From a virus (taxonomy: Duplodnaviria; Heunggongvirae; Uroviricota; Caudoviricetes), in IMG/VR virus record IMGVR_UViG_2541047806_000008: a stretch of 46,053 bases of DNA; one strand, given 5' to 3'. The position numbers were made by a program, and so were the translations under genes. Below are positions 28,497 through 36,754 of the stretch, one piece after another. Position 1 is the stretch's first letter. Every line of letters starts with the position of its first letter. A model generated the notes under the pieces. It saw nothing but the letters and a program-made list of their open reading frames with translations, was not told where the DNA came from and searched no databases.

Positions 28497-29579
28497 ATGA
28501 AAAAATTAACAGTGGCAATTTCTGCTGTAGCTGCATCAGTACTGATGGCGATGTCTGCTCAGGCAGCTGAAATTTATAATAAAGACAGTAACAAGCTGGA
28601 TCTGTACGGGAAAGTTAATGCTAAGCACTACTTCTCCTCTAATGATGCAGATGATGGTGATACTACTTATGCCCGTCTTGGCTTCAAAGGTGAAACCCAA
28701 ATCAACGATCAACTGACTGGTTTCGGTCAGTGGGAATATGAATTCAAAGGCAACCGCGCTGAATCTCAAGGTTCTTCCAAAGACAAAACCCGTCTTGCAT
28801 TTGCAGGCCTGAAATTTGGTGATTACGGCTCAATCGATTACGGCCGTAACTACGGTGTAGCATACGACATCGGTGCGTGGACTGACGTCCTGCCAGAATT
28901 CGGTGGTGATACCTGGACCCAAACAGATGTGTTCATGACTGGTCGCACTACTGGTGTTGCAACTTATCGTAACAACGACTTCTTTGGTCTGGTCGATGGC
29001 CTGAACTTTGCTGCTCAGTATCAGGGTAAAAATGACCGCACTGACGTAACTGAAGCCAATGGTGATGGTTTCGGTTTCTCCACTACTTATGAGTATGAAG
29101 GATTCGGCGTGGGTGCAACCTATGCTAAATCAGATCGCACTGACGGTCAGGTCGCCTATGGTAAGAGCAAATTCAATGCCTCCGGCAAAAATGCGGAAGT
29201 ATGGGCTGCAGGCCTGAAATATGATGCGAACAATATCTATCTGGCTACCACATATTCTGAAACTCAGAATATGACCGTTTTTGGTAATAACCATATTGCA
29301 AACAAAGCACAAAACTTTGAAGCAGTAGCACAATATCAGTTTGACTTCGGTCTGCGCCCATCTGTTGCTTACCTTCAGTCAAAAGGTAAAGACCTTGGTG
29401 TTCATGGTGACCGAGACTTAGTCAAGTATGTCGATGTCGGTGCTACTTACTACTTTAATAAAAACATGTCCACTTTTGTTGATTACAAAATCAACTTAAT
29501 TGACGATAGTAAGTTTACCAAAACAGCTGGTATTGATACTGATGACATCGTTGCTGTAGGTCTGGTTTACCAGTTCTAA
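28497..29579 (+). CDS. nmpC: Outer membrane porin, NmpC / Lc / OmpD family (cargo gene)
   Basis: 360 aa with signal peptide ([23 protein letters not shown]) and a general-porin sequence ending ...VGLVYQF; uninterrupted here; antisense to the late operon. Confidence 0.85.
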
Positions 29580-31024: not shown

Positions 31025-31187
31025 GATTCCTCCTTGCTGCCAGTCGCAACCATTTTTTATCAACCAAGCTGGCGGTATATCCGAGCAGTGTTGGTATTTC
31101 GGATGGCTTCAGCTCAGGTTTACGCTTACGACGATTTGGTACTCTGTAGATGTGTCCGTTCATGACACGAATAAGCGGTGTAGCCAT
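31017..31187 (-). CDS. ninE: NinE-like protein
   Basis: 56-aa ORF hand-translated ([30 protein letters not shown]...), basic and lambda NinE-like; below the track cutoff. Confidence 0.6.
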   Translation of the reverse strand: MATPLIRVMNGHIYRVPNRRKRKPELKPSEIPTLLGYTASLVDKKWLRLAARRNHG

Positions 31188-31642
31188 TACGCCTCCTGCT
31201 TGTCGCGCAGCAGCTGGAACTCGCAGCTCTGCGGAATAGTCAGGTGGCAGCCAATATTCACCGCCCAGGCTTCAACCTTACACAGGAAGATATACATCTC
31301 TCCGGTATCAAGATCGGAGGTATGGCGTAACGACTGGATAGTGGTGATCTCACCGGTTACGACATCAACCAGGTCTTTGGTTTCATAACCGAGATATGTG
31401 TGTTTGAGAGCATCTTTTACCCAAGCTGGAGTGGCGAACGTTTTACCCCTGCTGATGAGGTATTCACTGATTTCGCTGTACCACATGTGGCTGAGTGCAT
31501 TCTGGGAAAGACTGCGTTTCTCACGCCACGGTTTAAGCACCATGCGAAAGCATTTGCCTTCCTCCAGATAAGGCTGGATCTGCTGGCCGATAGCGGTGAA
31601 GTTACCACGATGCAATTTGATGCCGTCTTGTGGGAGGTTCAC
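31187..31642 (-). CDS. NinB family protein (YbcN-like)
   Basis: 151 aa; pattern [18 protein letters not shown] resembles the lambda NinB core; DLP12 YbcN-like. Confidence 0.7.
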
Positions 31643-31675
31643 GCTTCACCTCCGCAGAGGTCAAACGCTGGATGC

Positions 31676-31760
31676 AAAAAATCGCAGGTGCATCTCTGCA
31701 TCTGTGAAGGGAGAAGAGAGTTTGGATTGTATGTGCGCATAAACGTCCCCGTTTAGCGCA
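31676..31760. repeat. 85-bp direct repeat, copy 1 (partner at 33610-33694)
   Basis: AAAAAATCGCAGGTGCATCTCTGCATCTGTGAAGGGAGAAGAGAGTTTGGATTGTATGTGCGCATAAACGTCCCCGTTTAGCGCA; 80 of 85 positions identical to copy 2. Confidence 0.85.
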
Positions 31761-31836
31761 GAAGTCACCGGAGTTGTTCAAGCTCCAATGGCATGATTAT
31801 GGCTGGTTGATTATTGGAAATCAAATGTGCTGAAAA

Positions 31837-32346
31837 TTAGTCTGCCAAGTCTTCCTCAGTCGCAACTGGGTAATTCCAAATATCAAAAAAAGCTATAGCC
31901 TCCTGCCATTTGCTCCATAAGTTATCAAGTACTTGTGTAGGTTCCGTACTTTTAAAAACAGAATCAGCCGCATCACCGTTATGAACTTCCTCGTACAGTT
32001 CCATTATTAGCAGATTAACAAAGTACTGTTTCAACATTAATGCCTGATTACCTTCTTTCTGCTGGCTATCCTGCTTGATGAGCTCCATCGCCCGTACTAG
32101 GCACCTGATGATATCCGCTGCATCATTAACGCTCCATTCAGATCCGCGCTTATCTTTAGCTGATGAATTGGCTCTCTCAGCGCAAGCCTTTAAAGACTCA
32201 TAAAGGTAAACTCTATTTTGTAGCTGCAGCGCTTTTTTTGACGTGCACCAACTTGCAAGCGCCGACCCCGCTGCGGCTAATGTGCCAAACGCAGAAATGC
32301 CTGCTGCTATTGCACTTAAGTCGGCACTGTCAAAGTTCCACATCAT
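31837..32346 (-). CDS. Hypothetical protein with N-terminal hydrophobic anchor
   Basis: 169 aa; hydrophobic segment LSAIAAGISAFGTLAAAGSALASW then an acidic soluble region; AT-rich gene; no family recognised. Confidence 0.5.
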   Translation of the reverse strand: MMWNFDSADLSAIAAGISAFGTLAAAGSALASWCTSKKALQLQNRVYLYESLKACAERANSSAKDKRGSEWSVNDAADIIRCLVRAMELIKQDSQQKEGNQALMLKQYFVNLLIMELYEEVHNGDAADSVFKSTEPTQVLDNLWSKWQEAIAFFDIWNYPVATEEDLAD

Positions 32347-32520
32347 CGTTACACCTTATATAAACACCCCTCAGTAATATCCAATAAGGTATGTGAACAA
32401 TCAATATAATTTATATCCGTATCGGCACATAGCGATTTTAATGCTACTGATAATGGTATCTTTTAGATTATATCGTCCAGTTCCAGTACCCGTATTTTAT
32501 GAAATGGACTCGCACATTAC

Positions 32521-32562
32521 CAAAAAAAATGCCAGCACTTCCGTCATCGCAGAATGCTGGCA
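32521..32562 (-). terminator. Putative intrinsic terminator downstream of the Bro-N gene
   Basis: Inverted repeat GCCAGCA...TGCTGGC at 32531-32561; on the minus strand it is followed by a run of 8 U (plus-strand A-run 32522-32529). Confidence 0.5.
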
Positions 32563-32581
32563 GTATTTCTAACTAGTGACT

Positions 32582-33190
32582 TTATTGCAACAGATTCTGA
32601 CGGAAATATGGTAACACACGACTCCACTTATCATCCTGCCACGGTTGGAATTTTACATGCGCCGTTTCTCTGGCAAGGATTTCTCGCGCCCTGTTGAGTA
32701 TCCGAGGATATTCTTGTTCGATTGAAGTGAATCTACCTGCTTCGCGATGCTCTGCGACCTGAAGAAGGGGCGTAACGTTCTGGCAGGCGGTTAACATCGT
32801 ATCACTTGCTCGCCATAACCAGGCGAGTGTGCAAAGTTCGTTATCAGTGAATTGTTTTGTGATTGGGGATTGTTGAACTTCTCGATCGAGAATATCCAGA
32901 ACCCAGCGGCGGAATTCTTTGGCCACAGGAGTACGAGCAAACATGGCGATCAAATGGGCTCCGCGAAGGCTAAATACTCGAGACTCCTGCATTCCACGAG
33001 GGGTGGTCACTTTGACCACCCTTGTCATCATATCTGTGAATTCATCTGAGTGCCGAGAGTAAATGCGCTGAACTGCTTTATCGTCCGCATATTCCAGTGC
33101 TAAACCAACTTCAGTGGCAGTAAGCCAAATTCTGTTATTGTGGCAAATCGGGGTAAACGTCGTTTTGTGGAATGCTAATTGAGTAGTCAT
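32582..33190 (-). CDS. Bro-N domain protein (phage antirepressor-like)
   Basis: 202 aa; N-terminal region (FTPICHNNRIWLTATEVGLALEYADDKAVQRIYSRH ... RVFSLRGAHLIAMFARTPVAKEFRRWV) fits the Bro-N / KilA-N-like pattern. Confidence 0.6.
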   Translation of the reverse strand: MTTQLAFHKTTFTPICHNNRIWLTATEVGLALEYADDKAVQRIYSRHSDEFTDMMTRVVKVTTPRGMQESRVFSLRGAHLIAMFARTPVAKEFRRWVLDILDREVQQSPITKQFTDNELCTLAWLWRASDTMLTACQNVTPLLQVAEHREAGRFTSIEQEYPRILNRAREILARETAHVKFQPWQDDKWSRVLPYFRQNLLQ

Positions 33191-33609
33191 AGTATCACCT
33201 CATCAGGTTAACCATCACCACCAACGACGCCAATCGACTGGTGGTGAACTGTGTAAGGTTGGCGTAACCGGCTACTCAAACCCGGCGCTTCCGAAGAAGC
33301 CCTCACACAGCCCACCATAATTTGGGCATAGCCGTGCTTAGCGCACAAAAAAACCGCTTAACGCGGTATGCGTTGAGTAGTATCCCGGGACGCCAATCCC
33401 GTGTGCCGATTTTGCGGCAACGCACAGAATATAGCGCCGGATAAATCATGTCGTCAACCCCAGTAAATGGACACCATGATGATCACATCCATAGCTGCTA
33501 CAACAGTTACAACTACCTCAGGCCAAAACATAACGATTTCCATATCACCTTTAGCCGCCAGACGAATAGAGACTCCCAATTCTGGCTGTCGAAGTAAAAC
33601 ACCGAATGT

Positions 33610-33694
33610 AAAAAATCGTAGGTGCATTTCTGCATCTGTGAATGGAGATGAGAGTTTGGATTGTGTGTGCGCATAAACGTCCCCGTTTAGCGCA
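33610..33694. repeat. 85-bp direct repeat, copy 2 (partner at 31676-31760)
   Basis: AAAAAATCGTAGGTGCATTTCTGCATCTGTGAATGGAGATGAGAGTTTGGATTGTGTGTGCGCATAAACGTCCCCGTTTAGCGCA. Confidence 0.85.
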
Positions 33695-34002
33695 ACCCCA
33701 CCACCGGGTGTTCAGGCCGACAGTAACTATATTATTCCCTACTGATTTTTGAAAATCAAAGGTCTTTATACGTCACACGAGAGCAAATATTTCCGAAGAA
33801 GAAACCTTTCACCTTGAAAGGATAAAGAGTTCATTTCATAAATTGAAATATTCAATAAGAATATTGCAAAAAATGAAATTATTTACTAGCGAGTCTATCT
33901 AACTGATAATTATGAAGATTGTAAGCGGTAGCAATCACCCGCATACACATTGAACAGGATTTAATACAAAACGTCTTAAATTGTCCGTAAGGAATAGCAC
34001 GA

Positions 34003-35505
34003 ATGACTCAAACTCCTCTATTACTTGCAATCATATTTTTATTGGTTGTTCTTGTTCTTTATATAGCTGCAATCAAACGCATCAAAAAAATACAATTAGA
34101 ATTAAGTGATAGCAATCAAAAAAATGAAGAATACAAATCTCGCTTTGCAGATTATTTTAATGTAGAAGAAGAATGTAAGAAGCTTATTGAGAAAACAGAG
34201 CAAGAATGCTCCATAATAAAAGAAGAATCCCTAAAAGTAAAAGAAAATGCCAATAATGAACTAACAAACACCATTGAAAAAATGGATGGTATCAATAAAC
34301 AAATCCAAGAGCTAAGAAGAACTTATAAAGAGAAGAAAGAAATATATGATAAACTAGTAAGGCAAATTTCTATTTATTCAGAAGATGTTGAGCTAGCCGA
34401 ACTAGGATTTTACGAACCTCATTTTAATTTTGAAGATTCAGAGCAATTTAAAAACAAAATAAAATCCATCAGGGATGAACAGAAATTAATGCTGCGGGAT
34501 AAAACCCACTCTGGCGCAGTATATTGTACAACCCAATGGACTGTTGAAGGCTCTCGAGCAGAGGGTAAAAAAATGACAGACAGAAATATCAGGCTAACTA
34601 CTAGAGCATTTAATAATGAATGTGATGCTGCAATTAGCAATTGCACGTGGAAAAACATCACTAAAATGGAAGAACGCATCACAAAGGCATTTGAGGCCAT
34701 AAATAAACTAAACGAGCAAAATCACATATATATAAACACTAAATACCTCAATAAAAAACTTGAGGAATTGTGGCTTACCCATGAATATCGTGAGCAAAAA
34801 CAGAAAGAAAAAGAAGAACAGGCAGAAATAAGGGCACAAATGAGAGAGGAGGAGCGTGCACAACGAGAAATAGAAAAGGCCATGCAAGACGCAGAGGCAG
34901 AAGAGCGCCGTTATAAAAAAGCAATTGAAGCTGCAAGAAAGGAAATGGAAAAAGTTACTGGTGACATGAAGCAGCGCCTCGAAAATCGCATTGCCGAACT
35001 AGAACAGAGTTTGTCGCAGGCTGAATCAAAGCATCAAAGAGCATTATCCATGGCACAACAAACCAAACAAGGTCATGTTTATATTATTTCGAACATAGGT
35101 TCTTTTGGGGAGAATGTTTATAAAATAGGCATGACACGACGTCTTGATCCGCAAGACCGTGTAAATGAGCTCGGTGATGCATCTGTTCCTTTTATTTTTG
35201 ATGTACATGCCATGATTTATTCGGAGGACGCTCCATCATTAGAAAAAAAACTACATGATGTCTTCGATAAAAAGAGAGTCAATCTTGTAAATCGTAGAAA
35301 AGAGTTTTTCTATGTTACTCTGGATGAGATCAAAGAAGCTGTTAAAAAACACTCTGATTCAGAAATTGAATTTATTGAGACAGCAGTCGCAAAAGACTTT
35401 AATGAGTCATTGGCTATTCGTAATCATGAAAATAAAAAAAGTGACAACAGCAACTCATCAATTATACCTGAGCGAAAAACCCCAGAGTTTGCAGATGCAA
35501 TTTAA
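34003..35505 (+). CDS. Membrane-anchored coiled-coil protein with C-terminal T5orf172 / GIY-YIG-like domain (DUF4041-like architecture)
   Basis: 500 aa; N-terminal TM helix (LLLAIIFLLVVLVLYIAAI), long Lys/Glu-rich coiled coil, C-terminal GHVYIISNIGSFGENVYKIGMTRRLDPQDRVNELGDASVPFIFDVHAMIY...; AT-rich; opposite strand to the early operon. Confidence 0.6.
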   Translation: MTQTPLLLAIIFLLVVLVLYIAAIKRIKKIQLELSDSNQKNEEYKSRFADYFNVEEECKKLIEKTEQECSIIKEESLKVKENANNELTNTIEKMDGINKQIQELRRTYKEKKEIYDKLVRQISIYSEDVELAELGFYEPHFNFEDSEQFKNKIKSIRDEQKLMLRDKTHSGAVYCTTQWTVEGSRAEGKKMTDRNIRLTTRAFNNECDAAISNCTWKNITKMEERITKAFEAINKLNEQNHIYINTKYLNKKLEELWLTHEYREQKQKEKEEQAEIRAQMREEERAQREIEKAMQDAEAEERRYKKAIEAARKEMEKVTGDMKQRLENRIAELEQSLSQAESKHQRALSMAQQTKQGHVYIISNIGSFGENVYKIGMTRRLDPQDRVNELGDASVPFIFDVHAMIYSEDAPSLEKKLHDVFDKKRVNLVNRRKEFFYVTLDEIKEAVKKHSDSEIEFIETAVAKDFNESLAIRNHENKKSDNSNSSIIPERKTPEFADAI

Positions 35506-36056: not shown

Positions 36057-36754
36057 ACAGTTGCTCCTTTCAGTCCGAACTTCGCTTTGATTTCTGCGAT
36101 CTTCGCCAGAGCCTGTGCACGATTTAGAGGTCTACCGCCCATGACAGGAAGTTGTTTTACTGGTTCAGGTATCGCCTCACCACGGTTAATTCGCGCGGTC
36201 ATACAAGTCAGTTCATCGGCAGCCTTGCGCCGTAATTCCGCATCAGTAAGCGCATTGGCCCGCATGTTCTGATACAGGTTGGTAACCAGCCAGTAGTGCG
36301 CGTTTGATTTCCACGGATAAGACTCTGCATCCGGATACAGGCCACGCTTCCGGCAATACTCGTAAACCATATCAACCAGCTCGCTGGTGTTTGGTAGTCC
36401 GGCAATAACGGATGCTTCTTCCCGGCACCAGGCTACAAACTGTCCGGGGGATGGCAGGAATGGTCGATTCTGCCGACGGGCTACGCGCATTCCTGCGTTA
36501 ACCTGTTCCATCGTGGTGATCCCGTTTTCCCGGAAAGCCAGAACCCACTGGCGGCGGATTTCGTTCAGTTCGTTCTGCTCACGATTAGCCAGGCTCGCCG
36601 GGAAAGTTGCCAGTAACTGGCTGAACACACCGTTGATGATCTGCGCTACCTGCTGTACCTGTGGCTTTTCGTCATACTGTTCCGGCATGTTGTTGGCGAT
36701 CCGACGCATCTGCTCACGGTCAAAGTTAACCATCTGTGCGGCGATGTTTTTCAT
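36053..36754 (-). CDS. P: Replication protein P (helicase loader)
   Basis: 233 aa; near-identical to lambda P as recalled. Confidence 0.9.
   Translation of the reverse strand: MKNIAAQMVNFDREQMRRIANNMPEQYDEKPQVQQVAQIINGVFSQLLATFPASLANREQNELNEIRRQWVLAFRENGITTMEQVNAGMRVARRQNRPFLPSPGQFVAWCREEASVIAGLPNTSELVDMVYEYCRKRGLYPDAESYPWKSNAHYWLVTNLYQNMRANALTDAELRRKAADELTCMTARINRGEAIPEPVKQLPVMGGRPLNRAQALAKIAEIKAKFGLKGATV

Follow-up and report, generated by a model that had tools for sequence, protein, structure and literature searches.

Direct repeats around an isrK-C4-antirepressor module in a lambdoid prophage are probably two copies of the leader of the nin operon

Organization of the repeat-bracketed region

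The stretch of DNA analyzed here (the window, 46,053 nucleotides (nt); IMG/VR virus record IMGVR_UViG_2541047806_000008) is a phage-82/DLP12-like lambdoid prophage in which two direct repeats bracket a segment just upstream of the nin operon. All genes of the repeat-bracketed region are on the minus strand, and the region shares 100% identity with E. coli 118UI (CP032515) and 99.6% with phage PhiR26_1. Read in the sense of transcription, the genes and elements are ren, PD-lambda-1, which is encoded on the other strand, repeat copy B, an open reading frame (ORF) of 29 amino acids (aa), isrK, C4, a Bro-N gene with its terminator, orf169, repeat copy A, ybcN (ninB), ninE, ybcO, rusA, ylcG and Q. 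The repeats are probably two copies of an element, termed E below, that stands as a conserved regulatory head before the nin operon of many lambdoid phages. This degree of confidence applies to the explanation as a whole, i.e., to the duplication of the E leader, recombination within it and a module swapped in between the copies.

An earlier sequence-only reading of this DNA had described an 85-bp direct repeat around a two-gene cassette. The repeat is present as described (31676–31760 versus 33610–33694, 80 of 85 positions identical), and it extends ungapped to 31657–31760 versus 33591–33694 (93/104, 89%). Chance similarity is ruled out by the blastn E-value of 2e-35, obtained in a search against the window and fetched loci. 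With a 1-nt offset, weaker homology reaches further upstream into a promoter-like segment (23 of 37 positions identical at 31790–31826). No third copy was found by blastn in the window, which therefore holds two only. A tRNA or attachment-site origin of the repeats was rejected because the window contains no tRNA.

Several other features were confirmed: the hairpin at the repeat end (31734–31760 and 33668–33694, SL2 below), the Bro-N ORF at 32582–33190 and the 169-aa ORF at 31837–32346, both on the minus strand, and the terminator after the Bro-N gene, in which GCCAGC...GCTGGC is followed by T8 (32522–32561). What had been overlooked is the minus-strand orientation of everything, the RNAs isrK and C4, and a small gene, ylcH/orf33, inside the repeat. 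A further suggestion, that the repeat is a small RNA element, was not borne out: Rfam searches at a permissive threshold over 31600–33800 matched no family within the repeat itself, and the small RNAs sit inside the cassette.

Anatomy of element E

Copy A sits directly upstream of ninB/ybcN. The parts of E are listed below in the order of transcription, each part of copy A being followed by its counterpart in copy B where there is one (SL, stem-loop).

31796–31824, minus strand: predicted E promoter of copy A, TTGATT-17-CATAAT, with the perfect palindrome TTGATT-N6-AATCAA at 31807–31824
33731–33759, minus strand: predicted E promoter of copy B, −35 TTGATT (33759–33754), 17-nt spacer, −10 AATAAT (33736–33731); palindrome with one mismatch (CTGATT..AATCAA on the plus strand, 33742–33759)
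31766–31791, minus strand: SL1 of copy A, at the 5' end of the predicted transcript (start at about 31789)
33698–33726, minus strand: SL1 of copy B, with the conserved CCTGAACA loop and a stem weaker than that of copy A
31734–31760, minus strand: SL2 of copy A, with the ribosome-binding site GGGGA in the loop and the ylcH ATG (31740–31738) in the 3' arm
33668–33694, minus strand: SL2 of copy B, TGCGCTAAACG-GGGA-CGTTTATGCGCA, identical to copy A; contains the empty-site junction interval
31639–31740, minus strand: ylcH homologue (phage 82 orf33), 33 aa
31648–31661, minus strand: SL3, hairpin ACCTC-TGCG-GAGGT sequestering the ninB ribosome-binding site, within the 3' end of ylcH
31187–31642, minus strand: ybcN (NinB family), first gene of the nin operon
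33591–33694, minus strand: repeat copy B, 104 nt, with a degenerate ylcH-like frame

The E promoter is of the sigma-70 type. The 95 distinct upstream flanks that we compared are unrelated to each other beyond about −40, after which nearly all continue with TTGATT-N6-AATCAA, a few bases, and CATAAT. The −35 and −10 hexamers are 17 nt apart, and the sequence-invariant palindrome spans the −35 and the spacer. Both copies in the window carry TTGATT-17-(C/A)ATAAT, in agreement with the sequence-only reading, which had offered a duplicated regulatory site (promoter) as one identity of the repeat; the promoter itself is a prediction.

The palindrome was found in the window only at the two E promoters, for which reason it was rejected as an operator of the immunity region. 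An FNR site was also considered and rejected: the half-sites are FNR-like but their spacing is N8 and not N4. In about 90 related loci, across immunity types, the palindrome is conserved in sequence and does not covary, which suggests that it may be bound by a conserved protein, possibly one of the host. A minority of E promoters among the IMG/VR flanks (e.g., one reading ...GTGATTCTTGATAATCATTTTTCAAAAGTGATGTTATAAT) lack the palindrome and have TGATAATCATT in its place, a sequence that may resemble a Fur box.

The transcript predicted to start at E begins with two hairpins that covary. In SL1, the loop is conserved as CCTGAACA(A) (CTGAACA loop) and the stem covaries: 94% of cells pair, six of the seven pairs change on both sides, and compensatory cells number 57 as compared to 19 ± 3 in shuffles, none of 500 shuffles reaching the observed value. 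Pairing in slid controls was 10–44%. The many U-G and G-U pairs of SL1 are valid only in minus-strand RNA. SL2 occurs with at least six different stems; in each of them, the loop is of the GGGA (Shine-Dalgarno) type and the 3' arm includes an ATG or GTG. RNAalifold applied to a MAFFT alignment recovered SL1 and mis-modelled SL2 because the stem variants were misaligned; SL2 was therefore judged from folds of the individual variants. Both E copies in the window carry a palindrome of the TTGATT-N6-AATCAA type, a −10 and an SL1 with the CTGAACA loop.

The ylcH frame starts in the 3' arm of SL2, runs for 29–34 codons and contains the motif SQMQKCTCDFL. Despite indels, 95 of the 102 distinct variants preserve this frame, which always ends in ATGA or GTGA on the start of the next gene. 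Copy A has both features, a frame with this motif and a stop codon overlapping the start of a NinB-family gene: the TGA of ylcH overlaps the GTG start of ybcN/ninB (GTGA, 31642–31639). Furthermore, SL3 exists in three unrelated stem versions, all of which bury the downstream ribosome-binding site in the 3' arm. Arranged in this way, ylcH and SL3 have the layout expected of a leader ORF whose translation is coupled to that of ninB; we infer this coupling, like the activity of the E promoter, from the sequence.

A core within E, TCACAGATGCAGAAATGCACCTGCGAT (31676–31706 and all related loci), is invariant even at synonymous positions of ylcH. The invariance extends to the independently found phages phi80, HK639 and HK225. 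Two pairings are open to the core, one within itself and one to CUGCGC at the base of SL2.

Element E in other phages and genomes

E is carried, as a single copy, by about half of the complete E. coli genomes (2,892 of 5,426) and is single-copy in most phages as well; a scan of IMG/VR with a pattern from the E core returned 120 viral loci. In the phage 82 record (X92588), the equivalent of copy A is orf33 before orf151 (ninB), annotated with a ribosome-binding site and, upstream, a putative −35/−10 and a 'possible regulator-binding site'. Copy A is 97.7% identical to it over 131 nt and has the same putative −35/−10. In DLP12 of strain K-12, the same element is ylcH (b4588), which encodes a 33-aa 'uncharacterized' protein and overlaps ybcN, and in phi80 its hairpin is annotated as IR4. 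Phages HK639 and HK225, several Enterobacter phages and one Klebsiella phage carry E at about 79% identity. Compared to phage 82 and DLP12, the prophage in the window has an additional, partly degenerate copy 1.93 kb upstream, which does not precede ninB.

The sequence-only reading considered the repeat a possible cassette boundary and held that its occurrence elsewhere as ordinary sequence, unconnected with such boundaries, would speak against this. That part is contradicted to some extent, since the repeat is the ordinary ninB/ybcN leader and stands alone in most phages.

Phage lambda, at the corresponding place on its map between ren and ninB, has tR2, a plain and strong intrinsic terminator that lies about 30 nt ahead of ninB. 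Neither ylcH nor a promoter is present there in lambda, whereas E combines a promoter with a leader ORF and two hairpins that covary.

A more distant relative is present in the Salmonella prophage Gifsy-1 (locus L133 of our set, 36590–36670, minus strand), where an E-type promoter, TTGACT-17-CATAAT, is followed by an SL1, ACTGG-CCTGAACAA-CCAGT, with the same loop. An SL2-like hairpin surrounds the start of the first gene, STM2620, despite the absence of both ninB and ylcH. With antQ starting at 35026, the predicted transcription start (about 36632) is 1,606 nt away on the upstream side, and the start of the antQ operon was reported to be 1,600 bases upstream of antQ (PMC4825925). The two agree, which provides an experimental anchor for the promoter. 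The predicted start of copy A in the window (about 31789) is located some 1,620 nt upstream of Q. In one viral contig (L102), the order is Ren, YbcN, E, YbcN, i.e., a ybcN-like gene is present on either side of E.

Literature searches found no functional study of ylcH or of phi80 IR4. Relevant mentions of the gene were limited to a twofold RNA rise under microaerobic growth and an entry in a codon-bias table. As far as annotations and literature searches go, E is thus already annotated (ylcH, orf33) and apparently unstudied, with no regulatory role described.

The segment between the repeats

Judged by sequence, the DNA between the repeats is an antirepressor module of the P1 immI/Gifsy-1 isrK type together with an unrelated accessory gene, orf169. 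It has the following features.

33428–33457, minus strand: predicted isrK promoter, TTGACG-18-TATATT (10 of 12 consensus positions), conserved with Gifsy-1
33347–33419, minus strand: isrK small RNA (RF01394, 58.7 bits versus a threshold of 50), with its own terminator at 33367–33353
33208–33318, minus strand: 36-codon ORF that overlaps C4 and stops 15 nt short of the Bro-N start, in the position of Gifsy-1 orf45 (PMC4825925)
33237–33322, minus strand: C4-type antisense RNA (RF01695, 74.8 bits versus a threshold of 45)
33179–33233, minus strand: predicted a2/b2 targets of C4, TTGGCGT at 33233–33227 and CTACTCAA at 33186–33179 (Bro-N codons 2–4), plus TGGTGGTGA at 33223–33215
32582–33190, minus strand: antirepressor-type protein of 202 aa with Bro-N and P22_AR_C domains
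32522–32561, minus strand: intrinsic terminator of the antirepressor operon
31837–32346, minus strand: orf169, an independent accessory gene (moron), PHROG 1779, with a hydrophobic N-terminus and an all-helical body

Both isrK and C4 are located between copy B and the Bro-N gene. The C4 match is full-length (model positions 1–87); the c4-a1b1 model of Rfam scored 39.6 bits over isrK, below its threshold of 46.7. In the immI region of P1 and P7 (c4-icd-ant) and in the case of the P4 CI RNA, an antisense RNA is processed from the leader of an operon and is complementary to a1/b1 and a2/b2 sites, the a2/b2 pair covering the translation start of the regulated gene (see also Rfam clan CL00128). Unpaired segments of C4 in the window are perfectly complementary to a1/b1 sites in isrK (TTGGCGT at 33396–33390 and CTACTCAA at 33380–33373) as well as to the TTGGCGT and CTACTCAA sites of the a2/b2 pair listed above, which is the scheme of P1 immI. 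Differences from these systems are that an icd homologue was not identified, that the target overlaps with the antirepressor's own start codon and that the host element is a lambdoid prophage.

The Bro-N protein matches PF02498 (40.5 bits versus a gathering threshold of 25.6) and PF10548 (63.7 versus 22.4). It also matches PHROG antirepressor families, including PHROG 245, 'anti-repressor Ant', with E = 2.8e-56. Its activity as an antirepressor is predicted from these matches, and the presence of isrK and C4 beside this 'Rha/P22AR protein' suggests an antirepressor under tight RNA control.

The control region aligns to the isrK-orf45-anrP-isrJ locus of Gifsy-1 with 79% column identity (Hershko-Shalev et al. 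2016, PMC4825925). The aligned parts comprise the isrK promoter, isrK, a1, the C4-type RNA (STnc1160/orf45 region), a2 and the first antirepressor codons, MTTQ. The isrK RNA of Gifsy-1 has been reported to bind Hfq and to act in trans as an activator of translation of the long transcript (PMC4825925). Unlike in Gifsy-1, the module is located upstream of ninB and not downstream of Q, and it is preceded by a copy of E and the 29-aa ORF. The body of the antirepressor is also different, belonging to the Bro-N/P22_AR_C family, unlike AnrP. For isrJ, no match was obtained at E ≤ 5 in the Rfam search of 31600–33800.

No Pfam, NCBIfam or PADLOC match was found for orf169, which has only 14 homologue clusters, none informatively named. 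Its AlphaFold model (mean pLDDT 70.7) is a helical bundle that gave no significant match in the PDB (best E = 0.19, query-normalised TM ≤ 0.32). In eight loci orf169 occurs alone next to E, without Bro-N, and it is absent from at least nine cassettes that run on into the ninB-proximal element. Since each occurs without the other, orf169 is separate from the antirepressor cassette. The description as a 'two-gene cassette' is incomplete, as the unit consists of isrK, C4 and the antirepressor gene, in most cases with a small ORF upstream.

Filled and empty sites

Besides loci arranged as in the window, there are loci with a single copy of E and no module. Such empty sites, for which the sequence-only reading had proposed to search, were found in three viral contigs (L035, L046 and L071) and in 46 complete E. 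coli genomes, the latter with a contiguous empty junction; 112 complete genomes have the filled arrangement. The three contigs have the order PD-lambda-1, a single E, ybcN. In each of them, the sequence switches from copy-B-like to copy-A-like inside an identical 29-nt stretch that contains SL2, and after the switch L046 matches copy A including a rare G variant in the core. Recombination scars allowing gain or loss of a cassette, as had been suggested, therefore agree well with what is found: filled and empty forms, with the junction in the shared SL2 stretch.

Exchange is not restricted to this cassette. SL2 types and 3'-end types are found in all four possible combinations (31, 1, 2 and 24 cases), indicating from the sequences that recombination inside E is general. 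The isrK-C4-Bro-N unit is found with and without orf169 and with other 5' halves of E, and Bro-N homologues also occur without isrK/C4. About 10 of the 12 cassettes with a readable upstream side have an upstream E copy, of 83–99% identity (eight detected by the core pattern and two more by blastn). There is good support for gain or loss of the cassette through homologous recombination in a conserved regulatory leader; whether these events were insertions or deletions is a matter of inference.

State of the upstream copy

Copy B keeps the predicted promoter, the palindrome (with one mismatch), SL1, SL2 and the core, and diverges after the core. Its ylcH frame reads ..SQMQKCTYDFL.., one Cys of the CTC motif being replaced by Tyr, and runs on to 33513 (53 aa). 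There is no SL3 and no coupling stop, and the frame does not overlap the start of a NinB-family gene. In another lineage of B-type copies it is the other Cys that is missing, and the copy in IdasGreatGrand also lacks the ATG. The 5' half of copy B (promoter and SL1) is the same half that heads ninB in the three empty-site loci.

The copy-B frame runs into the following ORF.

33454–33543, minus strand: 29-aa hydrophobic ORF (MEIVMFWPEVVVTVVAAMDVIIMVSIYWG), matching the C-terminal part of PHROG 4612

This ORF is intact in most cassettes and cut to six codons in two of them (L083 and L122). Its product could be a small membrane protein or a toxin-like peptide. It has a good ribosome-binding site, and its stop codon overlaps the −35 of the isrK promoter.

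Proposed explanation and alternatives

On the minus strand, E consists, in this order, of a predicted promoter with its palindrome, SL1, SL2, ylcH, and SL3 hiding the ninB ribosome-binding site. Since E is the most conserved DNA between the replication and nin genes, homologous recombination between phages would take place inside it, and each exchange within E would shuffle upstream or downstream modules. In the prophage studied here, such exchanges would have put the isrK-C4-antirepressor module and orf169 between two copies of E, with the C4 RNA predicted to pair with the start region of the antirepressor. Recombination of copy A with copy B would delete the 1.93-kb segment. The 11% divergence of the copies and the lack of a recombinase argue against a transposon-like or site-specific mechanism and fit homologous exchange between diverged phages. 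The case is therefore one of ordinary phage mosaicism.

In the model of modular or mosaic evolution, lambdoid phages have conserved 'boundary' sequences at the junctions of modules. E resembles these as a short conserved segment between unrelated modules with crossovers inside it. It differs from a plain boundary sequence in that it is itself a structured regulatory unit, which would explain why this boundary segment is conserved.

Some observations weigh against this explanation or reduce its support. The palindrome matched no transcription factor known to us. The invariance of 23 core bases in the 120 loci is partly circular, because the search pattern was taken from the core; the blastn hits alone are independent, and they have the same core. 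For this prophage, the promoter and the translational coupling are deduced from sequence, together with a single start site that has been quoted for a relative in Salmonella. Over its first 59 residues only, the Bro-N protein can be aligned to Gifsy-1 AnrP (22/59 identities, 37%, E = 0.003). Two cassette loci, L124 and L056, have no upstream E copy, so the bracket is common and not obligatory. Finally, copy B may be functional or a remnant, considering that its ylcH frame lacks a conserved Cys and the coupling stop and that the ATG is missing as well in IdasGreatGrand.

The last point bears on the possibility that copy B is a selected regulatory duplication instead of a passive by-product, placing the 29-aa ORF and, by read-through, the isrK-C4-antirepressor unit under the promoter/operator signal of the nin-Q operon. 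This would be compatible with the proposed origin of the copy, and we regard it as possible, if on the doubtful side. Copy B retains the −35, the palindrome with its single mismatch, the −10, SL1, SL2 and the core, an upstream E copy is present in about 10 of 12 readable cassettes, and in Gifsy-1 the operon beginning at the E-type promoter is transcribed more strongly when the antirepressor is expressed. However, the 5' half of copy B is not cassette-specific, since it heads ninB in empty sites, isrK has a strong promoter of its own, and two cassettes do without the upstream copy. Moreover, two lineages show decay of the copy-B ylcH frame, through different Cys-to-Tyr changes.

A more speculative proposal, to which we give little credence at present, concerns the function of E. 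The element may be an uncharacterised switch composed of promoter, operator and leader peptide that gives the nin-Q operon its own regulated entry, independent of pR and N antitermination. A conserved, probably host, protein would act on the palindrome, translation of YlcH would gate ninB, and in prophages with two copies the same signal would feed the antirepressor module.

It is improbable that E is mainly a terminator or attenuator, i.e., a counterpart of lambda tR2 in which a core hairpin and a T-run in ylcH stop transcription unless ylcH is translated or CUGCGC pairs with GAUGCAG. The position of the intrinsic terminator tR2 in lambda is the same, a scan flagged TGCAGAGATGCACCTGCG followed by ATTTTTT at 31700–31683 as a weak consensus match in copy A, and RNAalifold proposes a long-range CUGCGC/GAUGCAG pairing that competes with SL2. 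The stem is weak, however (4–8 pairs, with an A-C mismatch), and the T-run is interrupted in most relatives (TTTTCT, TTCTTT, TATTTT). Covariation speaks neither for nor against either pairing, because the core never varies.

It is very improbable that a transposase or a site-specific recombinase has moved the segment as a mobile cassette, with the repeats as its ends or as a duplicated target: direct repeats do surround a discrete segment of different base composition, and filled and empty sites exist, but there is no recombinase or transposase gene between or beside the repeats, the 104-nt copies are 11% diverged, thousands of genomes have E once, as a functional leader of ninB, what lies between the copies varies modularly, and the junction lies inside plain shared sequence, as homologous recombination would give.

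Of the interpretation given in the sequence-only reading, the presence/absence polymorphism and the duplicated promoter are thus retained in the explanation by exchange within E, and the dedicated cassette boundary and the two-gene description are not.

Neighboring accessory genes

Between ren and copy B, divergent from the copy-B promoter, lies a gene for a 500-aa protein (34003–35505, plus strand) with DUF4041 and T5orf172/MUG113 domains that matches the PADLOC model PD-Lambda-1 (E = 1.9e-198), an anti-phage defence gene. Related phages carry other cargo between ren and ninB, such as emrE, ybcK, ybcL, ybcM and an alpha/beta hydrolase. Given this varied cargo and PD-Lambda-1 in the window, the ren-ninB interval is a hot spot for accessory genes. 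Downstream of Q there is a porin gene of the OmpC/OmpD (nmpC/lc) type (28497–29579, plus strand), as in DLP12 and PhiR26_1.

Implications

As stated, the finding changes little: it illustrates clearly how lambdoid prophages exchange modules, and both alleles are common in natural E. coli. The antirepressor module is a further member of a known family, and E is very widespread. The control RNAs isrK and C4 are missed by PGAP and phage annotations of this region, and RNA control of the predicted antirepressor bears on the induction of such prophages.

The K-12 'uncharacterized protein' YlcH belongs to a strongly conserved promoter and leader, both predicted, with three structured RNA elements and an operator-like palindrome. 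E therefore offers a cheap and directly testable hypothesis on the control of the nin-Q operon. If the switch proposed above were real, its signal would be linked to prophage induction in prophages that carry two copies.

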